From: a virus
Lineage: Duplodnaviria > Heunggongvirae > Uroviricota > Caudoviricetes
IMG/VR virus record: IMGVR_UViG_2681813318_000014
Reading direction: 5' to 3' (one strand)
Length of the DNA: 21,605 bases
A program made the translations under genes and the position numbers. Positions 5,317 to 21,605 of the stretch are shown piece by piece; position 1 is the stretch's first letter, and each line of letters opens with the position of its first letter. The notes beneath the pieces were generated by a model, which had not been told where the DNA came from, did not search any database, and saw only the letters and a program-made list of their open reading frames with translations.

Positions 5317-5325
5317 TTTAACGGT

Positions 5326-5472: not shown

Positions 5473-6261
5473 ATGATTTTTAGCAATCAAATCCGCTACA
5501 GTGGCAAAGATGGCATCTATTTCCACTTAAGAGATAATGTAGATGCCTTCTTAACTTTATCAGCTACTGAAAACATGGAATTTGACAGCCCTATGCAGGT
5601 CACTACACAAAACATGCAATCAGGGCAAACCGTCACAGATAATGTGCAAAGAGCACCCAGAACAATCACTATTAGTGGTGTCGTTGTAGTTGGCTATGAA
5701 GGGAGCTTATTATTAACTCGTCAGGGCCAGTTAGTAGAAAACTTCATCGACACTCTTGAAAGCTGGAGAGACCAGAAACAAATTATTTCAGTGATTTGTA
5801 AAGATGGTATCAAGATTGATGACTCAATTATTACCAACTTTAAAGCCTCTAAAGATGTTACTATCTCTAACGGTCTTCGTATCCAGCTAACTTTTCAGGA
5901 AATTAACTTCAAAGCCGTTGTGGGTCAAACTGATATTTCAGCAGCAACTGGAAAGACCGCTACTACAAATGATGGTGGTGTGACCAGTAAGAAGAATGCA
6001 GGTAACGTGACCACTGAACGCAATAACGCGCCTATGCTATCGTGCAAAGAGTTAATGAGTATTAACGATGTATCCGGTTACGCTCCAGCTATCAGAAATG
6101 ATATTCTCGATGCTCAGATTAAATGTAATAAGGCTTGGAAGCTGGATTATTCAGACTTAACAGAAGCTGAAAAAACCAACGTCACCAATGCTAACAGTAA
6201 CGCTGGTCGAGTAGCTTCAAAGCTTAAAAAGTACTCAGTGAACCCTCACAAAAAATACTAA
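5473..6261 (+). CDS. hypothetical beta-rich protein (262 aa), possibly a distal tail component
   Basis: ATG 5473 with AAGGAG 6 nt upstream (the track start at 5452 is a TTG with no RBS); position directly after a tape-measure gene; functional call is by position only. Confidence 0.5.
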
Positions 6262-6303
6262 ATCTCTACTACATCAACATCTATTAAACCCCTCTCAGTG
6301 ACT

Positions 6304-7782
6304 TCAGAAAGCGACTGTATAGCCTCTGTAACGTTGTCTGAGGGGTTTTCTGTTATTGGTAGGGTGGATTGACTTACTATTGTGAAAAGTTACTTTACAG
6401 CGACGTTTAGCAGTATTTAAAACGACCTCTTTAACAGCACTTTTGATTATCAGTTGTGCTTCAATCCTTCCCGCCTTTGTAGTCAAGTCACAATCAGACA
6501 AACACCCCACATCAATAGATTTAAGGCGTTGTGTCTCCTTCTCGATATCCGCATCAACCTGTGATAGCTCACCTTTTAACTGTTTTAGTTTGCTGGTAAT
6601 AGCGGACAAGTCTTCAATTTCAAGTGATAGCTGTACCAGCTTTTCAATATTGCTTGAGATGTGTTCACGGTGTAGCCTCAACATATCTATGGTATTCGTC
6701 ATATCGCTATCAAATCGGTCAAGACGAGATAGCAGGGTAAGTAATGTACCATCGGTTTGCTTACGTGACAGCCCTTTAGCACTACAACGGTTTTCATTAC
6801 GAAGAGGACAACGATAAATCCCGCTTCTTGTATCGCTAAAGCCTGTGATAATCAAAGCATGACCACATTCAGAACAACGGATAACACCTTTAAAGAGATT
6901 CACACTCAATGGTTTATCTGAAACAGGTTTTCTTCCATAACGAGAATATGATAGTTGCTGGACTTTGTAGAAATCAGTCTCAGGGATGATAGAGGGGAAA
7001 TAACCAGTTATCTCCTCACAGCCTTTAGGTGTGAAGTAACCAATTACAGAGCGATTCTTCAGAAGGTCTTGCACTGAGGTTTGACCAAACTTACCCGCTT
7101 TATATTGGTTAAGTGTCTGGTGACCTTCATCATTAAGAGTCCTGACAATCTCCCAGATAGACTTACCCTCTAACCGTAGCTGAAAGCACCTCTTCACAGT
7201 CTCCACTTTCTCAGGTATCACAGAGAAGCTTTTACGGTCATCATTCAGCCTTAACCATGCAGGACAACGCTTAGAAATCTTGATACCTTCAGAGATGAGT
7301 TCTTTTTTACGGTTCCATGCAGCTTGTATACGCTCAGACTTCCTCAAACTCTCCTCATGCGACCGCTGCATTATCAGAATGCTTTTAATCAGAGCTAACG
7401 GGTCTTTAAGAGATTCCCTTGTGTAATGTTCACCATCGGACAAGGTGACTACATCTACACCAGAGCGAAGAATGTTTCGTAATAGCTCACTTGCTCGGTC
7501 TACGTTCTGGCGTGACAAACGGTCAAGAGATTCTATCAAGAGCGTATCACCAGCTTTAACAAGCCCTTTCTCGATAGCGGTTAAAAAGTCACCTAAGCCA
7601 CCTTTCAAGTGCTTACCAGTAAACCCGCTAACGCCTAAATCACGGAAGGATAAATCTTGGTCAAGGTAGTACTCAGGATGAGCCTTAAGCCAGTCATTAA
7701 CCATCTTAGACTGTCTGCGTAGTGAATCACCTCGGGATTGCTTCTCAGATGAAAACCTGATGTAAGAAATGGCACGTTTCAT
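6304..7782 (-). CDS. large serine recombinase (integrase/resolvase family), 492 aa
   Basis: N-terminal resolvase-type catalytic region with Ser in AISYIRFSSEKQ; long recombinase domain; Cys-rich zinc-ribbon-like segment CSECGH...CP; C-terminal coiled coil; GGTGAGGTG RBS; at the edge of the AT-rich block next to chromosomal DNA. Confidence 0.85.
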   Translation of the reverse strand: MKRAISYIRFSSEKQSRGDSLRRQSKMVNDWLKAHPEYYLDQDLSFRDLGVSGFTGKHLKGGLGDFLTAIEKGLVKAGDTLLIESLDRLSRQNVDRASELLRNILRSGVDVVTLSDGEHYTRESLKDPLALIKSILIMQRSHEESLRKSERIQAAWNRKKELISEGIKISKRCPAWLRLNDDRKSFSVIPEKVETVKRCFQLRLEGKSIWEIVRTLNDEGHQTLNQYKAGKFGQTSVQDLLKNRSVIGYFTPKGCEEITGYFPSIIPETDFYKVQQLSYSRYGRKPVSDKPLSVNLFKGVIRCSECGHALIITGFSDTRSGIYRCPLRNENRCSAKGLSRKQTDGTLLTLLSRLDRFDSDMTNTIDMLRLHREHISSNIEKLVQLSLEIEDLSAITSKLKQLKGELSQVDADIEKETQRLKSIDVGCLSDCDLTTKAGRIEAQLIIKSAVKEVVLNTAKRRCKVTFHNSKSIHPTNNRKPLRQRYRGYTVAF

Positions 7783-7832
7783 TGTTCACCTCACCTAATA
7801 ACCCCTAGATTGTATCGCTTTAGGTGGTGTAT

Positions 7833-8234
7833 TTAAACGTGTCTAATAAAAATCACCCGATTAACGCCGCGCTGATGTAAACCGCGATTAAGCGTTTGTT
7901 CCTCTTCCCCTTTGGCGAAAAACTGTGGATGGCGGACTTCCACACCATAATTAAATTCGCCAGGGAGAGAATCGAGAAAATGCCAAAGCGCAGGCAGCTC
8001 CCGTGGGCCGAATGTGGCAGGCAGTTGCAGCCAGTATTGCCCAATGCGCGGAGCCAACGGTGACATGCGGGTCAAAAATTCAGTCACTAAATCATCGCAA
8101 TGTCGTAATGCTGCCTGATGCGAAATGGTCGCCGGAAACTTAAAACAGAAGCGGAAGTCATCTGTGGTCTGTTCACGCCAGCGCAGGACAACCTCGGGTT
8201 TCGGCAGGGCGTAAAGCGTGGTGTTGCCCTCCAC
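7833..8234 (-). pseudogene. yecE: fragment of a chromosomal DUF72-family gene (consistent with yecE), missing both ends
   Basis: GC-richer composition than both flanks; sequence CVEGNTTLYALPKPEVVLRWREQTTDDFRFCFKFPATISH fits the conserved DUF72 N-proximal pattern as recalled; no native start (frame open into the integrase 3' end); only about 133 codons versus roughly 270 expected. Confidence 0.5.
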
Positions 8235-8260
8235 GCAGTTAACATGACGGGTATTAAGGA

Positions 8261-9574
8261 TTAACTTACTGATTTTAATAAGCCTCTGGTGTCACTTTGG
8301 TGACTATGGGGCATCATTGGGACATAATCTGTCAGCTTCTGATTCAGCATTGCGATCTGTTCTGCATTGCTGTCAGTCATCCATGCTCCGTATACATTGA
8401 ATACCATCTGGGCACTTGCATGGCCCATCTGGCTGGCAATGAAGCTTGGGTTTGCTCCGGCAGATAATGACCAGCACGCATAAGTGTGTCGTGACTGGTA
8501 TGCCTTTCGATGCCTGATCCCTGCACGCTTAATGGCTGTTTCCCATGAGTCACCTACAGAATCGACTTTGTAGACAAAACCTACCTGTTCGCTTTTTCTA
8601 ACCACTTGAGGGTTAAACACGAAAGTACATTCATGGTTCACTGAACGTCCATATTCACGTAGTTGCACCTTGATGTTGTACTGCTTACCCAGTCTTGTCA
8701 TTTCAGCCTGATTTTTCAGGACACTGATAGCGGGCTGGATAAGGTGCACAACCCTGTTTGTGCTTGCTTCAGTTTTCGGTAGAGTGAACTCACCAAGTTT
8801 CGTATAATTGCGCCTGATGGTAATTGTTCCTGCCTTCAGATCGATATCTTCCCAGGCCAGGGAGACCAGTTCACCGTGACGCATTCCTGTGTACACAGCC
8901 AATGACCACAGGTTTTTCGTCTGCTGATGTCGGCAAGCATCTATCAGGCGAATAAATTCGTCACGAGTTAGCGGATCTGGCTCTGCCCTGGCTCTTTTAA
9001 GAGGCTTAATTCCCTGGAAGGGATTTGCTTCTAAGTAACCGTGATCTGCAGCAAACTGAAACATTCCAGCGATTGTCGTCATGTAATAATTTACAGTAAC
9101 GACGCTCCGTCCTTTTGCTGCTGCTTTGTTTTTCGTTGAATTCTGATACCCGGTAAGCAAATCTTTCCTGATATACAGCAATTCCTCTTTGGTTACCGAT
9201 GACACCAGTCTACTGCCTCCAATTTTCGGAACCATCGTTCTTGCAACGGATTCATAGCGATTGAATGCATTTGCAGAGATTTCCATTCGTTTCAGATCCA
9301 GCCACTTTTCTTCAAGTTCCTTCACCGTAATTTCTTTTTTACTTACCCCAAAAGCCTGAAGGTTGGGGGAGTCAGGGAACTGTGCAGCATAATCAAAGCT
9401 TCCTGTGCGGATGGCAAAACATACTGATGTCCGCAGTTCCCCGGCGATCTTCCTGTTCTTGGCAGTGTCAGGGACACCAAGATTTTCCCTGACACGTTTA
9501 CCGTTAAAATTAAACCAGATGCGTAATGTGCCGCCGTGGTTTTCGACGCCTGTTGGATATTTGACTTTATCCAT
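8261..9574 (-). CDS. int: phage tyrosine integrase (437 aa)
   Basis: C-terminal catalytic-region residues consistent with a tyrosine recombinase (AYQSRHTYA..., ...VYGAWM); N-terminal arm-type domain; GGAGGT RBS; immediately downstream of an excisionase-like gene on the same strand. Confidence 0.85.
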   Translation of the reverse strand: MDKVKYPTGVENHGGTLRIWFNFNGKRVRENLGVPDTAKNRKIAGELRTSVCFAIRTGSFDYAAQFPDSPNLQAFGVSKKEITVKELEEKWLDLKRMEISANAFNRYESVARTMVPKIGGSRLVSSVTKEELLYIRKDLLTGYQNSTKNKAAAKGRSVVTVNYYMTTIAGMFQFAADHGYLEANPFQGIKPLKRARAEPDPLTRDEFIRLIDACRHQQTKNLWSLAVYTGMRHGELVSLAWEDIDLKAGTITIRRNYTKLGEFTLPKTEASTNRVVHLIQPAISVLKNQAEMTRLGKQYNIKVQLREYGRSVNHECTFVFNPQVVRKSEQVGFVYKVDSVGDSWETAIKRAGIRHRKAYQSRHTYACWSLSAGANPSFIASQMGHASAQMVFNVYGAWMTDSNAEQIAMLNQKLTDYVPMMPHSHQSDTRGLLKSVS

Positions 9575-9629
9575 CGATACCTCCAGACGCCCAAGAGCGA
9601 TACGAGCTTACATATTTCATGATATTAAA

Positions 9630-9866
9630 TCACCTGGGTTGTTTGTTTTTCATTGAGGCGACCCAGGCATCTATTGCTTTTCTGTTATACATACATTCAC
9701 TGGAAGGCTTTGGATTACCGTCTGGTGATACGTGAATATACTCTCTTCCAACCATCCAGCATTCTTTCCGGGCCCGAAGAATTGTGCCTGGTTTGAGCCC
9801 GGTAATTGCGATAAGAACGCTTTCACAAACCCATTCATTGGGAGCCAGTTGAATCACATTGCCCAT
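9630..9866 (-). CDS. xis: excisionase-like protein (78 aa)
   Basis: Small basic protein directly upstream of int on the same strand; TGAGG RBS; resembles the lambdoid-prophage excisionase-like family from memory. Confidence 0.55.
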   Translation of the reverse strand: MGNVIQLAPNEWVCESVLIAITGLKPGTILRARKECWMVGREYIHVSPDGNPKPSSECMYNRKAIDAWVASMKNKQPR

Positions 9867-9874
9867 GTATTACC

Positions 9875-10021
9875 TCACACAACACTCAGCCCACGGCAGT
9901 GGCACCACACTTCAAACATTCGCTTCACAACTTCACGACAGTAGAAGCCGTCAACATCTCGCGTCAGGTCATAGCGATTGCCGTAACGCTGGTGGACCCA
10001 TCGTTCAAATGCTTTATTCAT
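9875..10021 (-). CDS. possible small protein (48 aa), below ORF-track cutoff
   Basis: ATG at 10021 with AGGAAG RBS 7 nt upstream; begins 4 nt after the upstream gene's stop; its stop lies 8 nt before the xis ATG. Confidence 0.3.
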   Translation of the reverse strand: MNKAFERWVHQRYGNRYDLTRDVDGFYCREVVKRMFEVWCHCRGLSVV

Positions 10022-10024
10022 TCT

Positions 10025-10267
10025 TTACTTCCTTTTTATGGCTCGTAATTTTTTCAGGTGCTTTTCCTGCTCAGTGTCCGCGAGAATTTTGCGGTACTCC
10101 TGGTGGTCAATATGTTCGAACAGGCAGTTTAACTCACCAATGCGTACCCGCCCGGATCGTCCGTCCATCCGTCGAAAGAACACTGAGTGCTCAGTGATGC
10201 GAGTAATCACCACGGGGTATCCGGCTCTGTCCGTGTATATCTGACCGCGTTGAATCAAAGCGAACAT
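10025..10267 (-). CDS. hypothetical phage protein (80 aa)
   Basis: ATG 10267; sits in the tightly packed early-left operon. Confidence 0.5.
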   Translation of the reverse strand: MFALIQRGQIYTDRAGYPVVITRITEHSVFFRRMDGRSGRVRIGELNCLFEHIDHQEYRKILADTEQEKHLKKLRAIKRK

Positions 10268-10271
10268 GTGG

Positions 10272-10355
10272 TTATCCCCAGCGGCAAATCGAATACACCA
10301 TCAGCGTCACCGCCATCGCAATTCCTACCGTTGTTAATGCTTCAGGCCAGGTCAT
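10272..10355 (-). CDS. possible 27-aa hydrophobic peptide ([27 protein letters not shown])
   Basis: ATG overlaps upstream stop (ATGA at 10352-10355); GGAGG RBS 10 nt upstream; single transmembrane-like segment. Confidence 0.3.
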
Positions 10356-10696
10356 CGTAAAATATCCTCCACGCTTATCAGTCCGTTCCGCTCCAGATAA
10401 CTCATCGCCTTATCCGGTAATTTGCAGTCTGGCTTCGCTTTCCTCAGTTGCCAGGTTAACTGCTTTACCAGCATGGTTAACTCATCGACCAGACGCTGAT
10501 ATCCCACTGGTTTGTATTCATGCAATTTACCGGCTGGCTCTGCTGCCAGCGATACCAGTGCGATTTCCAGAACAGCAATATCCATCTTATATGTGCGGAT
10601 GATGTCATGGTCGATTGTACCCGGTATGCACAGTCTCTGTGCTTCAATAGTCTCCTCTGCGTGAGCTATTAACTGCTCTCTGGTAAAAGTCGTCAT
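10352..10696 (-). CDS. hypothetical phage protein (114 aa), paralog of the next gene
   Basis: ATG 10696 in ATGA overlap with upstream stop; AAGGGG RBS; shares the [10 protein letters not shown] motif and a 29-bp DNA repeat with 10693..10878. Confidence 0.55.
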
Positions 10697-10878
10697 GCCG
10701 TAGCCCCTTCTTGATATTTTTCAAACCAGAACACAACCGGCTCTGCTTCCAGCGATACCAGTGCAATTCGTGCCAGTTCTTCCGCTTCTTCTGCTGGCAG
10801 TACAACGTTGCTACCCGGTCCGTATGTTTCGCGCCACTGCTTGATTGTCAGCAGTCGCCCTTTGGTAATAGTGATCAT
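10693..10878 (-). CDS. hypothetical phage protein (61 aa), paralog of 10352..10696
   Basis: ATG 10878 in ATGA overlap; AAGGAA RBS; motif [10 protein letters not shown]. Confidence 0.5.
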
Positions 10879-11390
10879 GCCGCGTTTCCTTCTTTCTTAT
10901 TAACAATCACACCGTCATATATTTCATTAAGGTGCCCTCTCAACTCCATGCGCCTTAATGCAGATAACATGTAATCGCATTCAACCTGCTTATTCCCAGT
11001 AAATGGCTTATCGTCAGGATTACCCCAACAGCAATTACCCCTGGGCCATCCATGTACTTTCCGTACTCTTCCGTTAACAACGTGAAGTAATCCCCAGCCG
11101 GGAGGTAAATCCTCAACTGAAATAATTTCCGGCTCACTAATAAAGAATCGCCAGTCGCCCATGCCAAGTGAGGGATTTTTACGGAAACGCTTTTTTCTAT
11201 CTGCCAACAAGTCAGCACGAGAACACTTCGCCTCTATCAGGCATGATGCTGAATTTCTGAATCCCATAGCATCTGGCTGTTCTCCGGTACTGGTTACAGC
11301 AACAAAGCGGTCATGAAAGCAAACCTTGAACCCGTTGCGCTTAAGGAACTTGTACGCAATCTGACAGAGTTCGTGGTGTGTTAACGCCAT
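10875..11390 (-). CDS. putative PD-(D/E)XK nuclease, MmcB-like (171 aa)
   Basis: Start moved to ATG 11390 (AAGGAG 6 nt upstream; track start 11423 is TTG); motif DAMGF...CLIEAKCSRADLLAD...DWRFFISEP fits the D...E-x-K nuclease core of the MmcB-like family as recalled. Confidence 0.55.
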   Translation of the reverse strand: MALTHHELCQIAYKFLKRNGFKVCFHDRFVAVTSTGEQPDAMGFRNSASCLIEAKCSRADLLADRKKRFRKNPSLGMGDWRFFISEPEIISVEDLPPGWGLLHVVNGRVRKVHGWPRGNCCWGNPDDKPFTGNKQVECDYMLSALRRMELRGHLNEIYDGVIVNKKEGNAA

Positions 11391-11391
11391 A

Positions 11392-11877
11392 TCACTCTCC
11401 TTTGATGCGAATGCCTGTTGCAATGCTGTTTATGATGCTGTCAGTGCATGGGGTAGAAAGCTGGGCATCTCCAGCAATTTTCATGACCTCAACATCTGCA
11501 TATCGAATACCGAGGTGTATCAGACCGGCTATGCCTGACTTAAGCCGAGCATTTTCCATAAATAGAACTTTTGCCCGCTGTTTTTCTGCTTCAAGCTCAA
11601 CGCGCAGCTTCCCTACCGTTAGCGCAATATCCTCGTTCTCCTGATCGCGGCTTTTGATGTATTGCAGGTTTCTTTCCCGTTCATCCAGCAGTGCCAGCAC
11701 GGTTTCTGGTCCGGTCAGAAATTTGAAGGCGTTGAGCGCATCAATATCCACACCGTAATCTTTAAGTTCCTGTTCACTTAACAAGTCATCATCAGCTGGC
11801 AACATTAACAGGCGTTCCATTGCTGGAATTGCACGTTCCGCCACCTCACGCAGTGCCTGGTAATTAATTTCGCTCAC
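11392..11877 (-). CDS. Ea22-like early protein (161 aa)
   Basis: GTG start at 11877 with AAGGAGG RBS 6 nt upstream; N-terminus MSEINYQALREVAE is characteristic of the Ea22-like family in lambdoid phages; GTGA overlap with upstream stop. Confidence 0.55.
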   Translation of the reverse strand: MSEINYQALREVAERAIPAMERLLMLPADDDLLSEQELKDYGVDIDALNAFKFLTGPETVLALLDERERNLQYIKSRDQENEDIALTVGKLRVELEAEKQRAKVLFMENARLKSGIAGLIHLGIRYADVEVMKIAGDAQLSTPCTDSIINSIATGIRIKGE

Positions 11878-12380
11878 TGGTTGCCTCCTTTGCGAAGCTG
11901 GGCAGCAAAGTCAACTAACCACTCAGTCATTTCAACCTTCCCTACCAGGTCTGAACCAGGGTACATACAGCAATCACTCTGCGCCGCTTTGAAATCCTTA
12001 TACTCATATTCTTGGGCCACCAGATTTTTTGCAGCTTCTATAGCAGCGTCCACCCCCTGCGCCCGGACTTCAGCCAGGAAAGCATCAGTGGTTGGCGTTT
12101 CAGGTATCTGTCTCCTCATCCGTTCTATTGCATGATTGAACCCGAAGTCTTCCGCGAGAGATACGTCATCCATATTGTCATTGTCATCCTCAATATCCCG
12201 TGATTCTGGAATTGCAGACTTTATTCCCGCATTCTCCGCTGCCAGCGCCGCGCACTTGGCCTCAAGAGCGGCAACCACTTCCTGATGGTCTTTGTACTTA
12301 ACGTATGAGCCGGAGATGTCATCACCTTCGGTGTTTAGCCATGCGTCATTGCAATTCACTGCGTAGGTTCTGATGCTCAT
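11874..12380 (-). CDS. acidic hypothetical phage protein with coiled-coil segment (168 aa from the internal ATG)
   Basis: ATG 12380 with GGGAGAG RBS, in ATGA overlap with the stop of 12377..12559; the track's longer 208-aa version begins at an upstream ATG without an RBS. Confidence 0.5.
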   Translation of the reverse strand: MSIRTYAVNCNDAWLNTEGDDISGSYVKYKDHQEVVAALEAKCAALAAENAGIKSAIPESRDIEDDNDNMDDVSLAEDFGFNHAIERMRRQIPETPTTDAFLAEVRAQGVDAAIEAAKNLVAQEYEYKDFKAAQSDCCMYPGSDLVGKVEMTEWLVDFAAQLRKGGNQ

Positions 12381-12559
12381 GTTGATGCTCTCCCGCCCCT
12401 GACAGACGCCAGGCCAGTCAATAAAGTATCCGCAATGCCTACCCTCAGACGTGCGCGCAGGATAAATGCCGTTATGACCCGGCAAATATATGCTACCCAT
12501 TCATCTTGCGTTGCCTGTTCCGCCGCCTCGCGCAGTGCCTGATAGTCAATCTTGCTCAC
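12377..12559 (-). CDS. short Ea22-like N-terminal-module protein (60 aa), possibly a recombination remnant
   Basis: GTG 12559 with AAGGAGG RBS; the first about 22 residues (MSKIDYQALREAAEQATQDEWVA) match the Ea22-like N-terminus, the rest is low-complexity; its 5' region is a DNA paralog of the 11877 gene start. Confidence 0.35.
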   Translation of the reverse strand: MSKIDYQALREAAEQATQDEWVAYICRVITAFILRARLRVGIADTLLTGLASVRGGRAST

Positions 12560-12860
12560 TGGCAGCCTCCTTTGCCGGGATTTCTAACTTTTGAGTGGTT
12601 GTATCAAATTCAAACAACTTAACCACGTCATCAAACAGGACATAATCACCATCAGGATCTTCAGTCATATCTGCGCCACAATCCTGACCGCACGAGTCGC
12701 AACCATCCATATCAAGCTCGTATCGCTTCAGGTTTGCGATATTTGATAAATTCAGCGCCAGTACAGCCAGGTCATAAACCTCTTCGGCAGTGACATCGCT
12801 GTTCAGTCCCATTTCATGGCGATATATGATTTTTTCTACTCGTTGTTTTGTGATCGTCAT
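12546..12860 (-). CDS. hypothetical phage protein (104 aa)
   Basis: Start moved to ATG 12860 (GGAGTG RBS 9 nt upstream); acidic C-terminus. Confidence 0.5.
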   Translation of the reverse strand: MTITKQRVEKIIYRHEMGLNSDVTAEEVYDLAVLALNLSNIANLKRYELDMDGCDSCGQDCGADMTEDPDGDYVLFDDVVKLFEFDTTTQKLEIPAKEAASEQD

Positions 12861-13131
12861 TTTTCTCTTCACTCCGATATACAAGGATTACTACACCCCC
12901 TCTGCTGATTGCGCGAGCTGGATCCCCTGGTTCCATGCCGTCAATTCCGAAGGCTTCGGAAAACGCATTCATTGCCTTCTGGCGTTCATCCTGCTTACGG
13001 CGTTTATTCCATTTTTTCAGGAACAACAGCGACAGCCACCGTCCGCTGCAGAACACGATGTAAAAATAACCAAGGAGCGCCAGGCCGACATTCAGGGCCG
13101 TTTCTATGGTTAGTTGTGAGTCAGTTGCCAT
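12814..13131 (-). CDS. small predicted membrane protein (105 aa)
   Basis: ATG 13131; N-terminal transmembrane-like segment LNVGLALLGYFYIVFCSG followed by a basic stretch KKWNKRRKQDERQK. Confidence 0.4.
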   Translation of the reverse strand: MATDSQLTIETALNVGLALLGYFYIVFCSGRWLSLLFLKKWNKRRKQDERQKAMNAFSEAFGIDGMEPGDPARAISRGGVVILVYRSEEKNDDHKTTSRKNHISP

Positions 13132-13369
13132 TTCTTACCTGTTTAAGTAACTGGTTGAACATAACACTTAGGGGATTGCTGTATCCAAACGGCAGATTGT
13201 TTACGCAGTACAGAATCATTTTGTTTTTTTCTCCAGTTCGTACTATTAACCCATTCCACAATAACCGTGATAATTCATTACTGATAGAAGTTGCGCTTCT
13301 TCCAAGTGCGAGGGATATATCTTCTCTACTGCAATCTGGATTTTCCTGGATATACTCGATAACGGTCAT
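13121..13369 (-). CDS. small winged-helix/HTH-like protein (82 aa)
   Basis: Start moved to ATG 13369 (AAGGGA RBS right after the upstream stop); segment CSREDISLALGRSATSISNELSRLLWNGLIV looks like an HTH. Confidence 0.45.
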   Translation of the reverse strand: MTVIEYIQENPDCSREDISLALGRSATSISNELSRLLWNGLIVRTGEKNKMILYCVNNLPFGYSNPLSVMFNQLLKQVRNGN

Positions 13370-13379
13370 GTGGTCCCTT

Positions 13380-13961
13380 TTACTTAATATCTGTTTCGGA
13401 TTGCATGCCATGAGTATTCATTTCGTTAATAATTTCATCCAGAAGGATTTCAAGCCCTTCTCGACCCATATCTGAAAGAATGAAACCTTTATCAGGGGAA
13501 GTAGTGAGCATTTTCTGATAAAGAAACAGCGCTCTTCCCATTCCTTCAGCTTCGCCGTATTTTTGAATTAAATTCCATTCAATATACTGTTGTAAGGCAA
13601 ATCGAATGGGGCCGGGATATATCGTCATAAACCCATACATCCCGTTATATACCACGGCGTGTTCAGTTGTTCCGTGTTCATTCAGGATATCAATTGTGCC
13701 GTTCTTGTCTTCTTCTTCGTTGATGAATGTCGTCACATACAACCATCGCCACTGAGCAACCTTCATCTCAACCGGAAGTTTACCCAGTAATCCTGCTTCG
13801 TCGGCTTGCGCCAGACACTGAAGGATACGTAAACCTCGCACATTAGGAGTATCGAATTCTCCGGCATCCAGACGACGTATGGCGTCGTGATAATCAATCG
13901 TCATACTGCCAGTTCGTATACCATTGGCTGTTGCTTCAGCCTGGAATTCATCGTATTGCAT
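13380..13961 (-). CDS. hypothetical protein (193 aa)
   Basis: ATG 13961 with GAGGAA RBS 8 nt upstream; no recognised motif. Confidence 0.55.
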   Translation of the reverse strand: MQYDEFQAEATANGIRTGSMTIDYHDAIRRLDAGEFDTPNVRGLRILQCLAQADEAGLLGKLPVEMKVAQWRWLYVTTFINEEEDKNGTIDILNEHGTTEHAVVYNGMYGFMTIYPGPIRFALQQYIEWNLIQKYGEAEGMGRALFLYQKMLTTSPDKGFILSDMGREGLEILLDEIINEMNTHGMQSETDIK

Positions 13962-13966
13962 GATAT

Positions 13967-14155
13967 TTATTCCTCATCTTCATCTTCATCTGCTGGTGCA
14001 ATAACGTCATATCCTGCCCTTTCTGCAATAAACAGGAATGTTGAAAGAGTTCCTACAAGTTCATCGTCATGAACATGGCGAATGAATATTACTTTCCCGT
14101 TTTTGATGGTCAGCAATATTCTGGTTTGTTCGTGTTCTGCTGTTTTCTGATGCAT
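13967..14155 (-). CDS. small acidic hypothetical protein (62 aa)
   Basis: ATG 14155 with GGGAGA RBS; C-terminal DEDEDEE tail. Confidence 0.45.
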   Translation of the reverse strand: MHQKTAEHEQTRILLTIKNGKVIFIRHVHDDELVGTLSTFLFIAERAGYDVIAPADEDEDEE

Positions 14156-14157
14156 TA

Positions 14158-14271
14158 TTATCTCCCGTATGCTTTACGCAGAAATAAGCAGGCAATATGC
14201 ATGTAATTTTCACCGTATTGTGCAATAAGGCAGGCGGTCTTGTGTGATGCCATATTCTTTATAAAAGTCAC
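14158..14271 (-). CDS. possible 37-aa ORF in the 195-bp intergenic region
   Basis: GTG start with AGGAGG RBS 7 nt upstream; stop overlaps the RBS of the next gene; weak. Confidence 0.2.
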   Translation of the reverse strand: MTFIKNMASHKTACLIAQYGENYMHIACLFLRKAYGR

Positions 14272-14304
14272 AATAAAGCCTCCTGTGGATTAAGGTTGTA
14301 ACAA

Positions 14305-14346
14305 TCCCCGGCGATAAAACCGCAATAAACGTTCAGGGCATATTTG
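14305..14346 (-). terminator. terminator-like hairpin after the 121-aa gene
   Basis: Minus-strand reading: GCAATAAC...GTTTATTGC stem starting 4 nt after the stop, followed by GGTTTTAT. Confidence 0.35.
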
Positions 14347-14349
14347 TTG

Positions 14350-14715
14350 TTATTGCGCTAATTCTTTTTCGGCAGCAGCTTTTGTATACTCACATGCAAA
14401 ACTCAGAATTTCGCTGCCGAGTGTTTTCGTTTCGTGATTACTGGACATATGTAATACCTGTGTTGCATGCAATAAATGATAAACATTTACCGCAAATGAA
14501 TCAGGCTCCAGACAAATGCCTTCGTAATTATCTTGCTGTGAGGTTGTTTCTGTCATTGCTCCTGAAGTGCATGCGAGCCTGTTTTTGACAATTCTCTTTT
14601 CTCTAATCACTATATCGGCAACATCTATTGCCTTTACAACCTCCGGGAGAAGTTCCGGGTTTGTATAATCAAAGTCATCAACATGGAGAACAGTTATGTT
14701 TTCGAACTTTTTCAT
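14350..14715 (-). CDS. hypothetical protein (121 aa), second gene of the cI-adjacent module
   Basis: ATG 14715 with GAGGAAG RBS 4 nt upstream; no recognised motif. Confidence 0.55.
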   Translation of the reverse strand: MKKFENITVLHVDDFDYTNPELLPEVVKAIDVADIVIREKRIVKNRLACTSGAMTETTSQQDNYEGICLEPDSFAVNVYHLLHATQVLHMSSNHETKTLGSEILSFACEYTKAAAEKELAQ

Positions 14716-14846
14716 GGCTTCCTCAGCTGACTTATATGTTCTGCTATATAGCGAGTCTCAGAAGTGTTTTCATATTGAGACTGTTTCCGCAATGATTGAT
14801 AAAAATGTTCGCATGTACCTTGAAGGGCGAAGCGGCGATTATGTCA

Positions 14847-15392
14847 CTATTGGTATTGGTTCTTCCGCAGAAGAGCTTCGCGAGATAAGGGGCAAACTTG
14901 TTGAGATGCGTCATGGTGTTGCTGCTCCTCACTTTTTGGTTGCTCCGGAGGAGTAACCTCACCAGTTAACAGCCACATCGGATCGCAGCCAAGAATATTT
15001 GCCAGTGGGATAAGCATACTGATAGTTGGTTCATACTCTCCGCTCTCCCACTGGATGATAATTTCTTCATCGAGATCGAGCAGCCTGGCGAGTTCGGCGG
15101 TTGTTAAGCCGCAGGCTTCGCGTTGGGTGCGAAGGTTAACCAGCCAGCTTTCAGGGAAGGATTGTTTTTGTTGTGCAGGAGAAGCAGCAGATAGAGCATA
15201 TTCATGGATAAATTCCATTACCTCAATGCCCAGTTCCTTTGAGCGAGCACAATCCAGAAGATGGAATGTGCGTACAGCACTTAGCAAATTTGCAATATTT
15301 AATGCAAAGGAATCAAGTTCTAAGCCCTTAAGCGTAACACAGCCGCAGTTGATAAAATTAGTTGTTTCTGGAGTTGCTTTTAGTGTCTTCAT
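14847..15392 (-). CDS. two-domain protein with C-terminal XRE-type helix-turn-helix (181 aa from ATG 15392)
   Basis: HTH segment LTTAELARLLDLDEEIIIQWESGEYEPTISMLIPLANILGCDPMWLL; the track start at 15422 is a TTG, the first ATG is at 15392; the N-terminal 90 residues are unassigned. Confidence 0.55.
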   Translation of the reverse strand: MKTLKATPETTNFINCGCVTLKGLELDSFALNIANLLSAVRTFHLLDCARSKELGIEVMEFIHEYALSAASPAQQKQSFPESWLVNLRTQREACGLTTAELARLLDLDEEIIIQWESGEYEPTISMLIPLANILGCDPMWLLTGEVTPPEQPKSEEQQHHDASQQVCPLSREALLRKNQYQ

Positions 15393-15444
15393 ATATCCGC
15401 CAACAATTTTAAATTGAATCAAATCAAGTTATAATTGATGGTGC

Positions 15445-15473
15445 GATATTATGTTTTGGGAAACAGGCTGTCA
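15445..15473 (-). promoter_or_regulatory. PL-like early-left promoter
   Basis: Minus strand TTGACA (complement of 15468-15473), 17-bp spacer, TAATAT (complement of 15445-15450); near-palindrome ATCAAGTTATAATTGAT at 15423-15439 just downstream, operator-like. Confidence 0.45.
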
Positions 15474-15503
15474 AGAAAAAATTGATATCGTATATTTCAG
15501 GCA

Positions 15504-15525
15504 GAAAAAAACGGGCAAAGCCCGT
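15504..15525 (-). terminator. intrinsic terminator after the cI gene
   Basis: Minus-strand hairpin ACGGGC-TTT-GCCCGT followed by a T7 run, 13 nt after the cI stop. Confidence 0.5.
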
Positions 15526-15537
15526 TAAAATCAAAGA

Positions 15538-16227
15538 CTAACCAAATCTGTTTATGTTGAATGGTACTGATGAGATCACTTTAGACTGGATATAAAGCAG
15601 AGCTAACCCCTCTTTTTCGATGCTCCATGGTTGATAATTGGGGTTATCAGATAACACCATGATTTTGCTTCCAATTTTTTGAAGCCTTTTCACGTAGCAT
15701 TCTCCATCAAAACAAAATGCATAAATACCATCGCCATCAAAATAAGTTACTGTCTTATCAAGAAAAAGAAGGTCGCCAGGTGAGATTGTGGGAGCCATAC
15801 TGTCTCCTCTGGCGTTACCTATTTCTATATTTTTGAATGCCCGATTTCCAACAAGACGTCGGGCATATTCAGGATCAAGTTCTATTGAGCGCACTACATC
15901 TATCAAGTCACCACGGACATGAGTTCCATCACCGCAACTAAACTCAACATCAAGGACATTAAATACGACGCTATCTGTTCTTGTCTGGTGTTTCTCTTGC
16001 GAGGAAAAGGTTGGTGAGGAGTCTTCACCTAAGAACCAGGATTGTGGATAACCGCTAATCTCTGATAAATGCGCGAGCTTATCACTCCGTGGAAATGTTT
16101 TTCCTGTTGTCCAGTACTGCACTGATTGCGCACTCACACCTAACTTGCGGGCCAGTTGAGCCTGAGTCCATCCTTTTGCTTTCAGCATCGCGGCTATTCG
16201 ATTTTCCGTGTTTTTGACGTTCTTCAT
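15538..16227 (-). CDS. cI: prophage repressor, cI-like (HTH plus LexA-type S24 peptidase domain), 229 aa
   Basis: N-terminal HTH (WTQAQLARKLGVSAQSVQYW); C-terminal autocleavage domain with Ser in GDSMAPT and Lys in VKRL; divergent from a cro-like gene; start moved to ATG 16227 (track start is TTG). Confidence 0.85.
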   Translation of the reverse strand: MKNVKNTENRIAAMLKAKGWTQAQLARKLGVSAQSVQYWTTGKTFPRSDKLAHLSEISGYPQSWFLGEDSSPTFSSQEKHQTRTDSVVFNVLDVEFSCGDGTHVRGDLIDVVRSIELDPEYARRLVGNRAFKNIEIGNARGDSMAPTISPGDLLFLDKTVTYFDGDGIYAFCFDGECYVKRLQKIGSKIMVLSDNPNYQPWSIEKEGLALLYIQSKVISSVPFNINRFG

Positions 16228-16233
16228 GACCAA

Positions 16234-16360
16234 ATCCTGTGGGTTTCTTTACAAGGATAAATCTTTACTTGATTTTAGTGTATTCGATCCTTTTGTAACT
16301 TGCATGTTAATTTAAACTTGATGTATTCTTGATTTATAAAGTTAATATTGGTGCTTTGTT
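16234..16360. promoter_or_regulatory. immunity-region operator/promoter zone between cI and cro
   Basis: Three imperfect 17-bp sites ending in ACTTGAT/CTTGAT (16257-16273, 16306-16322, 16317-16333) related to the palindrome next to the PL-like promoter; TAATAT -10-like hexamer at 16343-16348. Confidence 0.45.
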
Positions 16361-16633
16361 ATGGAAGGAAATGATTACGACAAACTTCGTGCATTAATTG
16401 CGCAAAATGCCATAGCGCGAAATCTTGGTGTGACGCCGCAAGCGGTGAATCAGTGGTTTTCAAAAAACACAATTCCTGCTCGTTTCGTTTTACGCGTATG
16501 TGAAGTAGTTGCATGGAAGGTCACGCCACATGGCTTAAGGCCAGATCTTTATCCTCACCCTGAAGATGGAATTCCTGATTCGTTACGCAAAATTTCAAAT
16601 CCAAGCTTAGCGCACACAGAGGACGAGAAGTGA
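16361..16633 (+). CDS. cro: Cro-like repressor, YdaS-type HTH (90 aa)
   Basis: Divergent from cI; segment NLGVTPQAVNQWFSKNTIPARFVLRVCEVVAWKVTPHGLRPDLYP fits the YdaS/Cro-type HTH family as recalled. Confidence 0.7.
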   Translation: MEGNDYDKLRALIAQNAIARNLGVTPQAVNQWFSKNTIPARFVLRVCEVVAWKVTPHGLRPDLYPHPEDGIPDSLRKISNPSLAHTEDEK

Positions 16634-16673
16634 TGGTGGTGATATGAGCGAAAAAATAACTATTAAATACGAT

Positions 16674-16696
16674 GGGGCAACCATTTCGATTGCCCC
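16674..16696 (-). terminator. hairpin downstream of the antisense moron gene
   Basis: GGGGCAA-9 nt-TTGCCCC stem; on the minus strand a U-rich stretch follows but is not immediately adjacent; weak. Confidence 0.25.
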
Positions 16697-16703
16697 AATC
16701 ACA

Positions 16704-16997
16704 TTAGCGTTCGCTGAGAAGTTGTTGGTAAGCCTTAAAGGATGCGAACTGCATTCTACCTTCGGCATTGATTCCAATGCCTTCGCTTGTACACCAGGTG
16801 ATGAACTCGGCTGTATCCGCTTCAACTTTAATAACTCGTTGCCCGCTTCTTTCGACACGCTTAATCAATTTTTCAGCGTCGTGTTTCCACTCGGTGTAAC
16901 TGTCGGAGAGCACATCAGCATCAGTAAAAATATTTTTGAGCTCATGATACTGAATCGCATCGCGAAACCAGAATAAACCAACGGCCTGAACTTTCAT
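16704..16997 (-). CDS. hypothetical protein (97 aa) encoded antisense within the early-right operon (moron-like)
   Basis: ATG 16997 with AAGGAGG RBS 7 nt upstream; opposite strand to cro and the rha genes; no recognised motif. Confidence 0.5.
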   Translation of the reverse strand: MKVQAVGLFWFRDAIQYHELKNIFTDADVLSDSYTEWKHDAEKLIKRVERSGQRVIKVEADTAEFITWCTSEGIGINAEGRMQFASFKAYQQLLSER

Positions 16998-17116
16998 GTC
17001 GAACCTCCTTTGGTTCTTTTGTTTATAGGGATCAAAAGGATAACTGAAGGAAGGTTCGGCACCAATAAGTACGAATGTGCGGAATCTTAAAAGAATTTAT
17101 CCGTAAGGAGATGGCA

Positions 17117-17824
17117 GTGAACACCGCAATTTTTAACGACAAAGCATCCATGACCAGCGTTGAGATCGCAGAGCTGGTGGGTAAACGTCATGACAATGTG
17201 AAACGCACTATTGAAACATTAGCCAAAGGTGGCGTTGTCCGGTCTCCTCAAATTGAGGTTTCCGAAAGAATCAATAACTTAGGTTTTAAAGTTCAATATG
17301 AGCATTACCTGTTTGAAGGAGAACAAGGTAAGCGCGACAGCATCATTGTCGTCGCACAGCTCTGTCCTGAATTCACTGCTCGCCTGGTAGATCGCTGGCG
17401 CGAACTGGAAGAACAGATCCGTAAGCCAATGAGCGAAATCGAAATGGTTGCCGCGATGGCTCTTGAAGCCGTTCGCCAACAGAAACGGATCACTCAGGTG
17501 GAAGAAAAAGTCAGCCACGTTGCTGAAACAGTCGAGCAAATTAAAAAGGGCACTATTCGTGAGGGCTATGCCGGATATCGCCAACTGAAAGCAAAAACCG
17601 GTTTGTCAGATGATAAATGCCGCAATCTGGTGAACGCCTATCAGATTCCTACAGACACCCATGAGTTCATGACGCCGGACGGATTGTTGTCACGTCGCGC
17701 AATTGTTGCTGTGGAACCGTTTATGGCTGCTTTTTATCGGGTTATGGAGGAAGCAGAACCGCGAGGGACTCGCTGGTATCACCCGAAAATGGGGTTATTT
17801 CAGGTTATTGGTTGGCAGCGGTGA
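17117..17824 (+). CDS. phage regulatory protein, Rha family (about 235 aa)
   Basis: Motif SVEIAELVGKRHDNVKRTIETL matches the Rha-family N-terminal signature as recalled; the track ATG at 17075 has no RBS; ATG 17111 abuts AAGGAG with no spacer, so GTG 17117 (6-nt spacer) is favoured; the start is uncertain by a few codons. Confidence 0.65.
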   Translation: MNTAIFNDKASMTSVEIAELVGKRHDNVKRTIETLAKGGVVRSPQIEVSERINNLGFKVQYEHYLFEGEQGKRDSIIVVAQLCPEFTARLVDRWRELEEQIRKPMSEIEMVAAMALEAVRQQKRITQVEEKVSHVAETVEQIKKGTIREGYAGYRQLKAKTGLSDDKCRNLVNAYQIPTDTHEFMTPDGLLSRRAIVAVEPFMAAFYRVMEEAEPRGTRWYHPKMGLFQVIGWQR

Positions 17825-17847
17825 AAAAAAGCCGGGAGTAACCCGGC
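17824..17847 (-). terminator. strong intrinsic-terminator hairpin oriented for the minus strand
   Basis: GCCGGG-AGTAA-CCCGGC (17831-17847) with the run 17824-17830 giving U7 on the minus strand; begins at the Rha stop codon. Confidence 0.45.
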
Positions 17848-18232
17848 TCACTCAACATCAATAACGGGGAGCTGTTTCGCATAAAACGGCTCCGAAACAT
17901 CCAAGAACAGTTCTAAAGATATCAGCAGCTATATGATCATTTCAAGACCAAATATTGATTCTGCAATTTCGGGACGTTACACTGTCTCTGCACCTTATAA
18001 AGCGGGTGCCGGGGGTCGCAGCCCGGAATTGTCAACGGCGATATATGACGCGCCAGCGTCTTTTTTATCGTCCGCGCTCACGCACGCCAGAATTATGGTG
18101 GGCTGGGCAGGGGAGCCGAAAGGCTCGCCGGTCTCCGTTGACGCCGGTACTGCGAACCCTGTTCAGTCTGCCACCAGTGAGTTTCGCAGCTCCGGTGGTG
18201 GAAGTTTTCCACAGTCAACGGAGGCTGCCATC

Positions 18233-18784
18233 ATGGCTACGATCCCAACCCTCACTCAACCTGAAATTGCCATCGTTGATGGTCAGGCTGTTACTTCATC
18301 CCTGGCTGTTGCCAACTTCTTCTCCAAGCGTCATGACGATGTACTGAAAAAGATCCGCACGCTTGAATGCTCCGCATCATTCACTGCCCGCAATTTTTCG
18401 GTGAGTGATTACACCGATTGCACAGGCCGCAAACTACCTTGCTATCAAATCACCCGTGATGGCTTCGCGTTCCTTGCTATGGGCTTTACTGGCAAACGTG
18501 CAGCCCGGTTCAAAGAGGCATACATCAACGCCTTTAACCTGATGGAGAAGAGTTTATCAGGTGCCGATGCGTCTGATATGTCAGCTGTCGCACGAAACGC
18601 CAGAGGCGTATACCTGCATTTGCGTGAAATCCATCAAATCTGGACAAGCCAGCTTTATCCAATGCTTAAGGCCGTTGAATCTCCGCTGGCTAGCAAACTG
18701 TACGACCGTGTTGGTGATGCTGTTTTTGGCGCTGCACTTGTTGATTCCAGGCTGAATGGTTCTGACAAGGAGGTTCGCCCATGA
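18233..18784 (+). CDS. second Rha-family-like regulatory protein (183 aa)
   Basis: ATG 18233 with GGAGG 9 nt upstream; motif AVTSSLAVANFFSKRHDDVLKKIRTLE; the track's longer version (from 17933) adds a GC-rich low-complexity extension with no RBS. Confidence 0.65.
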   Translation: MATIPTLTQPEIAIVDGQAVTSSLAVANFFSKRHDDVLKKIRTLECSASFTARNFSVSDYTDCTGRKLPCYQITRDGFAFLAMGFTGKRAARFKEAYINAFNLMEKSLSGADASDMSAVARNARGVYLHLREIHQIWTSQLYPMLKAVESPLASKLYDRVGDAVFGAALVDSRLNGSDKEVRP

Positions 18785-18975
18785 TTAGTTACGAAATCAT
18801 CATCTCCACTACGGAATACAGAAACGATGTATCAGTTCGCACGGATGTATCTGTCTGGCACCGTCGCTATAAATCCAGAAAAACAGCGGAACTGAAAGCG
18901 GCAGAGATGTGTGAAACCATCTCAATGAAAGGTAGCCCGGTTAAATACGTAACTACGGTGGAGGTGCGTCCATGA
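18781..18975 (+). CDS. small hypothetical phage protein (64 aa)
   Basis: ATG in ATGA overlap with upstream stop; AAGGAGG RBS. Confidence 0.5.
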   Translation: MISYEIIISTTEYRNDVSVRTDVSVWHRRYKSRKTAELKAAEMCETISMKGSPVKYVTTVEVRP

Positions 18976-19196
18976 TCCGCCACATCGTTAATTCCCTGTA
19001 TCACCGATACAACCGTTGCCCCCGTGTGGGGCAGTGGTTCGCCACCAGCAACGGTCACGTTCTGCGGGTTTGCCTAGTCAACGCTGAAAGCCAGAAAGTC
19101 GTGTGCGAACTACAGGGGCGTAGCTACACCATCAGTTACCCTCTGGCGGTATTTCTGTCTGGAAAAATGTTTAAGCGTCTGGGAGGTGTGGCGTGA
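18972..19196 (+). CDS. small hypothetical phage protein (74 aa), Cys/His-containing
   Basis: ATG in ATGA overlap; GAGGTG RBS. Confidence 0.5.
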   Translation: MIRHIVNSLYHRYNRCPRVGQWFATSNGHVLRVCLVNAESQKVVCELQGRSYTISYPLAVFLSGKMFKRLGGVA

Positions 19197-19492
19197 ACTG
19201 TTTTCAGTTTGTGTGCGGATGTGCTTTCGATAACCCGATTCAGCGCCTAATTATGTTGCGTGTTTTGATGTCGGGTTCTTCAGACGGTGAAGGCGAGAGA
19301 GTTATTGATCATCAGGTGCTTGCTGATTTCTGCTGTTGTTCTAAGCAAGCGATATTCAGGGAAACCCTGGCACTGGAAAGAGCTGGTTATCTTCATATCC
19401 GAAAAATTGCAACGCTTACTATTGATGCAAAAGCCCGACTACAACCTGCGCGTGGCTACACAATTCTCATGCCGCGGAAGGAGGTTGTATGA
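19193..19492 (+). CDS. hypothetical protein, possible winged-helix DNA-binding (99 aa)
   Basis: GTG start in GTGA overlap with GGGAGGTG RBS. Confidence 0.45.
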   Translation: MNCFQFVCGCAFDNPIQRLIMLRVLMSGSSDGEGERVIDHQVLADFCCCSKQAIFRETLALERAGYLHIRKIATLTIDAKARLQPARGYTILMPRKEVV

Positions 19493-20514
19493 GCCGTTAC
19501 GCCCCCACACCGGAAGTTATGGCTATTGGTCAAATTAATATTTCCGGCAATGTTACACCTGCGAACTGGTGGAAATATATTCGACTACCCAGTGGGCGTC
19601 CGGATGCGACGGCTATCGCTCTGCTTTCAGAGATCGTTTACTGGTACCGCCCGACAGAGGTCAGGGATGAGCACACCGGAGCGTTGCTGGGATATCGCAA
19701 GCGTTTTCAGGGCGACAAACTGCAAAGAAGCTACCAGGCGTTTGCTGAGCAGTTTGGTTTCGGGAAAAGGGAAACCGCAGATGCGCTGAAGCGTCTGCGC
19801 GATGCAGGGTTTATTACTCTGGATTTACGCACGGTGGAAATGCTCGATGGGGTGAAATGCAGCAATATTTTGTTTGTCGGGATCAACCCACAGGCAATTG
19901 CGGCCATCACCACACCTTCTTCTGTTTCGCCAGAAAGTAACAGCAATAATGCAATCAGCGATACAGCTATTACGTTAAAACGGAACACCCCCCGACGTCA
20001 TAACGGAACAGGGGATACGCCGAATGTTGATACAAATACAGAGATTACTACAGAGATTACAACGGAGACTAAAAACACTATTGATGCATCCGCTGACGCG
20101 TCTGCGCGTTCTGCCCGACAGGAATATTCACCGGAATTTGAACAGGCCTGGCAGGAATATCCCAAACGTGCTGGTGGCAATTCCAAGTCAGCGGCCTTCA
20201 AAGCCTGGAAAGCCCGTATCAGGGAGGGAATAAAACCGGAGACCATGCTTGATGGCGTGAAGCGGTATGCCGCCTGGGTACGTGCTACAGGAAATACCGG
20301 CACACAGTTCGTGAAGCAGGCTGCGACGTTCTTTGGACCCGATCGTCACTTCGAAGATTACTGGCAACAGCCAGCCGCTCACGGAGGTGGGCGACAGCGA
20401 CAGGTCGATGTCCTGGCTGGCCTGGGAGCCATGTCTGACAAATTCGGTAAATCCAGTAACGAGGGAGCCACTTATATGTTGGGGAGGCAAAGCCTCCCGC
20501 AACATATCTTTTAG
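19489..20514 (+). CDS. phage replication-initiator/replisome-organiser-like protein (341 aa)
   Basis: ATG in ATGA overlap with AAGGAGG RBS; two domains joined by a Thr/Glu-rich linker that is encoded by tandem 12-bp repeats; overall resemblance to lambdoid O-type proteins is from memory. Confidence 0.55.
   Translation: MSRYAPTPEVMAIGQINISGNVTPANWWKYIRLPSGRPDATAIALLSEIVYWYRPTEVRDEHTGALLGYRKRFQGDKLQRSYQAFAEQFGFGKRETADALKRLRDAGFITLDLRTVEMLDGVKCSNILFVGINPQAIAAITTPSSVSPESNSNNAISDTAITLKRNTPRRHNGTGDTPNVDTNTEITTEITTETKNTIDASADASARSARQEYSPEFEQAWQEYPKRAGGNSKSAAFKAWKARIREGIKPETMLDGVKRYAAWVRATGNTGTQFVKQAATFFGPDRHFEDYWQQPAAHGGGRQRQVDVLAGLGAMSDKFGKSSNEGATYMLGRQSLPQHIF
20037..20072. repeat. three tandem 12-bp repeats inside the replication gene (possible origin iterons)
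   Basis: ACAGAGATTACT / ACAGAGATTACA / ACGGAGACTAAA, in frame (TEITTEITTETK). Confidence 0.3.
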
Positions 20515-20522
20515 TAATCAAA

Positions 20523-21605
20523 TTAGAACTGGTAAACCATACCTACAGCAACGATATCATCGGTAGCAACGCCAGATGCTTTCGTGAAATCGCTCTTATC
20601 AATCAGGTTGATTTTGTAATCAACAAAAGTGGACATATTTTTGTTGAAGTAATAGGTTGCACCTACATCAATATATTCAACCAGGTCCTGATCACCCCAC
20701 GCACCCAAGTCTTTTCCTTTAGATTGCAGGTAAGCAACGGACGGACGCAGACCGAAGTCGAACTGATATTGTGCAACTACTTCGAAGTTTTGTGCTTTGT
20801 TGGCAATATGGTTATTACCAAAAACAGTCATGTTCTGGGTTTCAGAATAGGTGGTAGCCAGATAGATGTTGTTCGCATCATATTTCAGACCAGCTGCCCA
20901 TACTTCAGCATTTTGACCAGATGCATTCAGGCTGTTGTTACCGTAGATAACCTGATTATTAGTGCGGTCAGATTTAGCATAGGTTGCACCTACACCGAAT
21001 CCTTCATACTCATAAGTAGTGGAGAAACCGAAACCATCACCATTAGCTTCAGTTACGTCAGTGCGGTCATTTTTACCCTGATACTGAGCAGCAAAGTTCA
21101 GACCATCAACCAGACCAAAGAAGTCGTTGTTACGATAAGTTGCAACACCAGTGGTGCGACCAGTCATGAACACATCTGTTTGGGTCCAGGTATCGCCACC
21201 GAATTCTGGCAGAACGTCAGTCCACGCACCGATGTCGTATGCTACACCGTAGTTACGGCCGTAATCGATTGAGCCGTAGTCACCGAATTTCAGGCCAGCG
21301 AAGGCAAGACGGGTTTTATCTTTGGAGGAACCTTGAGATTCAGCGCGGTTGCCTTTGAATTCATATTCCCACTGACCGAAACCAGTCAGTTGATCGTTGA
21401 TTTGGGTTTCACCTTTGAAGCCAAGACGGGCATAAGTAGTATCACCATCATCTGCATCATTAGAGGAGAAATAGTGCTTAGCATTAACTTTCCCGTACAG
21501 ATCCAGCTTGTTACTGTCTTTATTATAAATTTCAGCTGCCTGAGCAGACATCGCCATCAGTACTGATGCAGCTACAGCAGAAATTGCCACTGTTAATTTT
21601 TTCAT
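20523..21605 (-). CDS. nmpC: outer-membrane general porin, OmpC/OmpF/PhoE family (NmpC/Lc-like, prophage-associated), 360 aa
   Basis: Signal peptide [23 protein letters not shown] followed by AEIYNKD; porin-type YG/aromatic-rich beta-barrel composition; C-terminal ...VGMVYQF ending in Phe; the symbol is assigned from the prophage context and is not verified. Confidence 0.85.

Follow-up and report, generated by a model that had tools for sequence, protein, structure and literature searches.

What accounts for a phage replication gene and a porin gene that meet stop codon to stop codon with only 8 bp between them? The pair closes a 21,605-nucleotide stretch of DNA from a virus of the class Caudoviricetes (IMG/VR record IMGVR_UViG_2681813318_000014; hereafter, the window, meaning this stretch at its full length). 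The replication (rep) gene lies on the plus strand at 19489–20514, encodes 341 aa and ends with a TAG at 20512–20514. The porin gene lies on the minus strand at 20523–21605, encodes 360 aa and runs from a start codon at the window end to a stop codon at 20523–20525, leaving the gap at 20515–20522. This convergence had been claimed by an earlier sequence-only reading, and it was confirmed by the ORF coordinates and by independent gene calls on other assemblies that reproduced the 8-bp spacing (10001–11026 versus 11035–12117). In a PHROGs profile search the rep product matched PHROG 270 ("replication initiation protein"; E = 6e-75, residues 2–323) and several further "replication initiation" PHROGs; family matches to it came from PHROGs only, with none in Pfam or NCBIfam. 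The porin covered the whole Pfam Porin_1 profile (E = 3e-153), scored 518 bits against the NCBIfam OmpC subfamily (cut-off 484) and matched PHROG 410 over its full length. No helicase loader, nin-type or Q gene was found between the two genes or elsewhere in the window, in agreement with the earlier remark that the genes usual after a replication module are absent. We consider it very likely that the 8-bp layout is the scar of one illegitimate, blunt deletion of 4,144 bp in a lambda-like prophage at yecE; prophage decay of this sort is commonplace and does not amount to a novel type of system.

The deletion junction and the replaced end of the replication protein

The reference for the comparison was the prophage that E. 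coli AF39 carries at yecE (NZ_OZ547136.1; hereafter, locus L002), which is the closest available relative and not a proven ancestor. Window positions 7849–20460 aligned to L002 3001–15612 with 99.5% identity and positions 20461–21605 to L002 19757–20901 with 100% identity, the 4,144 bp between them (L002 15613–19756) being missing from the window. This places the junction at 20460..20461, where homology on the left ends at L002 15612 and homology on the right starts at L002 19757, and the joint is identical in loci L003–L008, which come from independent assemblies. The rep and porin genes are thus 8 bp apart because the deletion took out the genes between them. The proposal of a deletion or recombination junction was borne out by the AF39 homology on both flanks and the loss of the intervening sequence, but its placement at the 8-bp gap was not, as the true discontinuity lies 54 bp to the left of the rep stop.

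At the breakpoint, the two parental sequences have no base in common (microhomology of 0 bp on both sides), and the join was therefore blunt and illegitimate; a deletion mediated by microhomology or by repeats was rejected on the same grounds. Within 40 bp of the joint, the longest word common to both parents is 8 bp long and lies away from the junction. The 8-bp word GGGAGCCA, present at 20424–20431 and 20463–20470, was considered as a mediator and rejected, both copies being still in place. As a side observation on which we place no weight, the right breakpoint sits in the loop of a small hairpin (AAGTGGCT-TGAGGG-AGCCACTT), the middle one of three in the spacer that separates Q from the porin gene in AF39.

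Codon 324 has its third base at position 20460, so the break coincides with a codon boundary. Codons 1–324 (19489..20460, plus strand) form the native part of rep, which falls to PHROG 270 and is 99.5% identical to the AF39 rep, and the remainder (20461..20514, plus strand) is a junction-derived tail of 17 codons (EGATYMLGRQSLPQHIF) plus the TAG, running through the 3′ flank of the porin gene. In a protein alignment, residues 1–324 matched full-length homologs identically through N324, after which three full-length homologs end in ...KSSNKLTF and the window protein in ...KSSN followed by the 17 new residues (325–341). The KLTF end is kept even in a homolog whose N-terminal domain is unrelated, and the family profile matches to rep all end by residue 326. 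The tail codons are a reverse-complement reading of the porin 3′ flank, including its stem-loop. Alignment of the C-terminus with homologs, which the sequence-only reading had proposed, thus supported its suspicion that the end of the protein derives from the junction. As the break fell, by chance, at a codon boundary, the rep frame runs on for 17 codons and ends 8 bp before the porin stop, and the gap itself is simply where this accidental frame reaches a stop.

The C-terminal ~130 residues of rep (window ~20080–20460; L001 1469–1856) are identical in a homolog from strain 15A whose N-terminal ~190 residues are unrelated, and both this homolog and the AF39-type rep sit ahead of the same DnaC-like loader. 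From these comparisons, rep looks like a swappable origin-binding domain joined to a constant loader-contacting domain, and the shared ~130-aa C-terminus would fit such a loader-contact role. A 12-bp unit (TACAGAGATTAC) occurs inside rep in two exact tandem copies at 20037–20060, encoding TEITTEITTE, with a further copy at 19962–19973 (83% identity). The array totals just these few copies, which might represent the iterons of an intragenic origin like that of lambda O. Separately, rep 3′ homology ends at L002 ~15517–15546 (window ~20365–20394) in ~140 of 408 complete genomes with 86–95% identity. This end, ~67 bp left of the junction, is a natural mosaic boundary, presumably one at which other loader modules are attached. 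That the rep 3′ end might be a hot spot for deletions was considered and rejected, as most breaks in complete genomes reflect this boundary and not deletions.

Lost genes, the porin and its 3′ flank

Within L002 15613–19756, the missing segment comprises the final four rep codons with their stop, a 299-aa IstB/DnaC-like ATPase (NCBIfam DnaC loader, E = 3.7e-36, below the curated cut-off at 125 versus 357 bits), a 466-aa DnaB-family helicase (DnaB_C, E = 6e-74), an 85-aa ORF between the helicase and the DUF968/HNH gene, the DUF968/HNH protein (E = 3e-81), the QuuD antiterminator (Phage_antitermQ, E = 3.5e-53) and the initial 126 of the 188 bp that make up the Q–porin spacer. The ancestral order would have been rep, DnaC-like loader, DnaB-type helicase, 85-aa ORF, DUF968/HNH, QuuD (the Q antiterminator) and the 188-bp spacer, followed by the porin on the opposite strand, tRNAs, a nanS-p esterase and the holin/lysozyme genes, and the deletion starts 15 bp short of the rep stop and reaches to a point 62 bp past the porin stop. 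The AF39 prophage itself is a complete lambda-like genome with an integrase, a Q–porin–lysis region, terminase, portal, capsid and tail genes and tail fibres, and its rep–loader–helicase–DUF968–Q order was found again in strains 15A and JKHS016. The lambda O/P replication modules are similar, as an initiator is followed by a helicase loader; in the intact relatives of the window the initiator precedes a DnaC-like loader and a DnaB-type helicase. They differ in that a phage of the present kind brings its own DnaB, whereas the lambda-type P-like protein recruits that of the host; in the window, moreover, the partner genes are gone and the last four rep residues are replaced.

The porin is carried under the RefSeq label "porin OmpC"; it is nevertheless a phage cargo gene of the Lc/NmpC/"OmpD" type, encoding a member of the 16-strand general porin family and normally found directly after Q, and not the host ompC. 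In complete genomes, a 100%-identical porin lies inside a prophage, directly after quuD, with three tRNAs, a nanS-p-type esterase, a holin and a lysozyme on its far side. Porins of 97–99% identity occur in the isolated phages PhiR34_1, PhiR68_2, PhiR70_1, ev099 and ev243, always right after Q, and porins of ~90% identity in Perceval and other phages. These isolated phages have a common layout of Q, a 188-bp spacer and the porin on the opposite strand (in PhiR34_1 the order is Q, 188 bp, porin on the minus strand, then S/R/Rz). Convergence of the porin on the early-right operon is thus the normal state in this phage group, and the abnormal feature is the absence of everything between rep and the porin.

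The phage porins Lc (phage PA-2) and NmpC (DLP12) likewise belong to the Porin_1 family and are lysogenic-conversion cargo of lambdoid phages, located after Q on the opposite strand; on the K-12 map, DLP12 also has the quuD–nmpC pair. The likeness of the window porin to PA-2 Lc and K-12 NmpC is one of family and position, as distinct from direct sequence comparison. In contrast to both, the window is without the adjoining Q and without two thirds of the Q–porin spacer, including its canonical terminator. The position of the lc and nmpC porin genes after Q is described by Blasband et al. (1986), as cited in PMC11677980, and nmpC sits on a lambdoid prophage that is defective (PMC11677980).

The full Q–porin spacer of AF39 (L002 19631–19818) measures 188 bp, includes three stem-loops and shows conservation among isolated phages. 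The window retains 62 of these 188 bp as the porin 3′ flank (20461..20522, minus strand; 100% identical to L002 19757–19818), and this part is conserved in PhiR34_1, ev099 and Perceval. It contains a stem-loop with a 15-bp stem and one bulge at 20474..20507, within the final 41 bp of the rep ORF. The folding energies are −22.7 kcal/mol on the plus strand and −23.3 kcal/mol on the minus strand (z = −6.8 and −5.7, respectively), 0 of 200 shuffles folded as well, and the structure is nearly invariant in four relatives. The stem is followed on the porin strand by AAGUGG, without a U-run, and on the plus strand only by CUUUU. A consensus scan for a stem plus T-run returned no site in 20200–20800. 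The earlier statement that no terminator separates the genes thus holds for a canonical stem plus T-run in this interval, although it had overlooked the strong hairpin. AF39 has a canonical minus-strand terminator, GGGGCGTTGCAACGCCCC followed by a T-run, at L002 19664–19681, 138 bp beyond the porin stop; it falls within the deleted segment, and the proximal stem-loop was kept. With its canonical terminator gone, transcripts of the porin gene may therefore run antisense into rep. In the other direction, repressor cleavage would send early rightward transcription head-on into the porin gene.

The first stretch after Q is the usual site of the late promoter and the Q-loading site in lambdoid phages. 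Promoter scans of the Q–porin spacer and of the porin–tRNA region found nothing beyond shuffle expectation, and an Rfam search with the intact spacer returned only chance-level matches (TarB, E = 0.2; AniS, E = 0.8). If the late promoter lies within the Q–porin spacer, late transcription from Q would cross the porin gene antisense. The late promoter might instead be located beyond the porin, where it might be rescued by a compatible Q of another resident prophage.

Recurrence of the junction and rival explanations

The exact 341-aa fused protein was found on 12 contigs, among them contigs from five different NCBI assemblies and an ENA metagenome, and has been deposited as "replication protein [Escherichia coli]" (e.g., CTX59446.1); given this recurrence, we regard the junction as real. 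Over up to 12.1 kb, the joint included, the carrier contigs match the window with 99.96–100% identity, which points to a single event passed on within one lineage. In a set of 5,426 complete E. coli genomes, the intact rep/loader joint was present in 283 and the intact quuD/porin joint in 2,315, and the fused rep–porin joint in none. The occurrence of the same layout in complete prophages, which the sequence-only reading had named as counter-evidence, was sought in these genomes and in 50,697 phage records, and it was absent from both sets (0/5,426 and 0/50,697). The exact 33-mer spanning the junction had 0 matches in the genome_contigs collection, a result of little weight, since each species is represented there by a single genome.

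In loci L014–L016, the same rep gene has a second deletion allele of independent origin, with a 344-aa product (L014 10001–11035; GCA_049209475.1, ABYHYD010000004.1). Here AF39 homology breaks off at L002 15579, 33 bp left of the breakpoint in the window, and picks up again at L002 18455, within the DUF968 gene, with an overlap of 2 bp. This allele, too, is without the loader and helicase, and RusA and a different Q (PF06323) are retained. It is conceivable, though in our judgement unlikely, that loss of the loader and helicase is recurrent and selected, and/or that the deletion rewires the locus and makes the porin repressible by DNA damage. Under such rewiring, SOS-induced early transcription would enter the porin gene antisense with only a weak hairpin between.

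Four other explanations of the layout were weighed against a single recent deletion. The window could represent a viable mosaic variant that uses the host DnaB and DnaC and has its late regulator elsewhere, the compact rep–porin layout being functional. Lambdoid phages are indeed highly mosaic, and the end of rep 3′ homology near the junction in about a third of the genomes compared (~140/408, ~67 bp to the left) would agree with it. Against this, none of the phage records has the layout, the new rep tail is just an antisense reading of the stem-loop 3′ of the porin gene, no Q-family gene was recorded in the 17 kb seen, and flanks 99.5–100% identical to an intact prophage indicate a recent loss and not an old module swap. 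We therefore regard a functional variant as very unlikely. A chimeric short-read join of two prophage fragments during assembly is extremely unlikely. The joint is missing from the complete E. coli genomes and all its carriers are draft contigs, as an artefact would predict, but the same joint appears in five separate NCBI assemblies and one metagenome, and with no bases in common at the joint a k-mer assembler had nothing to mis-join on there; the recurrence and the lack of common sequence together make an artefact implausible.

The gene pair could also mark a prophage/host boundary, with the porin as chromosomal ompC and rep as the last gene of a truncated prophage. The RefSeq label and the score above the NCBIfam OmpC cut-off would favour a host gene, whereas the phage tRNAs, nanS-p-type esterase, holin and lysozyme on the other side of the porin, the 97–99% identical porins between Q and the lysis genes of isolated phages, and host flanks of yecE and yecD instead of the ompC locus all speak for a phage gene. 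A boundary of this kind is scarcely credible, and a host gene at the prophage edge was rejected as the identity of the porin, which is cargo in its usual position downstream of Q. Even less probable, to the point of being practically negligible, is that the 4.1 kb are an insertion in AF39-type prophages and the window the ancestral state. Nothing specific speaks for this reading. Such an insert would have to provide the conserved rep C-terminus, the whole loader–helicase–Q module on which lytic growth depends and the upstream part of a spacer conserved in isolated phages, and the intact joints occur in 283 and 2,315 genomes when the fused joint occurs in none.

State of the prophage and significance

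Apart from the deletion, the prophage retains its control and integration genes. Excisionase and Ea22 genes are present and the element is integrated at yecE, and the tyrosine integrase (8261–9574), excisionase, HTH plus Peptidase_S24 LexA-like repressor (15538–16233) and Cro/YdaS-like regulator (16361–16633) are intact in the window. Two consecutive Rha-family regulators, the second with an N-terminal Ash domain, lie in the early-right operon (17075–17824 and 17933–18784). The 5 kb that adjoin the window on its right in the deletion lineage encode three tRNAs (CAU, UCG and UCU anticodons), an esterase, a holin and a DUF1327 gene. They match AF39 with 99.98–100% identity as far as the lysozyme gene, where the contig ends; every contig of this lineage breaks at or before that gene, and so ahead of the structural-gene region and attR. 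The sequence-only reading had proposed a look for late genes on this side; lysis genes are present there, but their activator Q is not. One of the tRNAs (L003 12943–13014) is called tRNA-Ile by RefSeq and tRNA-Met with a CAT anticodon by ARAGORN, the usual ambiguity of a lysidine-modified Ile tRNA, as in Stx-type phages upstream of the lysis region.

A second element was observed inside yecE, immediately left of the lambdoid prophage (window 1–7848; compare L010 3885–14712). It encodes a tape-measure protein (3148–5316), a Dit-like tail protein (5452–6261) and, on the minus strand, a large serine recombinase (6304–7782), and a DUF72/yecE fragment (7833–8234) separates it from the tyrosine integrase. 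In strain JKHS016 this element is ~10.8 kb long, too small for a full phage, and it may be a remnant or a satellite.

With the loader, helicase and Q lost relative to AF39, the prophage is very probably defective, as the sequence-only reading had likewise supposed, and very probably unable to replicate or to switch on its late genes. Induction could still lift repression and perhaps permit excision, but replication would fail without the loader and helicase, and late transcription would fail for want of Q and probably also of a late promoter or Q-loading site. As judged from flanks 99.5–100% identical to an intact prophage and from one clean deletion as the sole lesion in the region examined, the decay is very recent. 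Loss of this kind is the usual route to a cryptic prophage, and the general process of prophage grounding has been reviewed (both PMC6379469). In E. coli, cryptic or "grounded" lambdoid prophages such as DLP12, Rac and Qin are alike in having lost lytic genes by internal deletion while keeping cargo and immunity. They are, however, heavily eroded, unlike the prophage described here with its intact integrase, excisionase and repressor, which also sits at yecE and not at argU.

These observations bear on annotation. The deposited 341-aa "replication protein" (CTX59446.1) is a fusion artefact of a deletion, and the gene annotated as "OmpC" is phage cargo and not chromosomal ompC. Tools that count genes could rate such a prophage intact despite the missing loader, helicase and Q. 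As a simple deletion scar, the locus is a new instance of a well-known process, the decay of lambdoid prophages. Judged by gene content, a single blunt deletion would have disabled replication as well as late transcription and left immunity, integration and the porin untouched, giving a clean and very recent view, expected rather than surprising, of the first step in prophage domestication.
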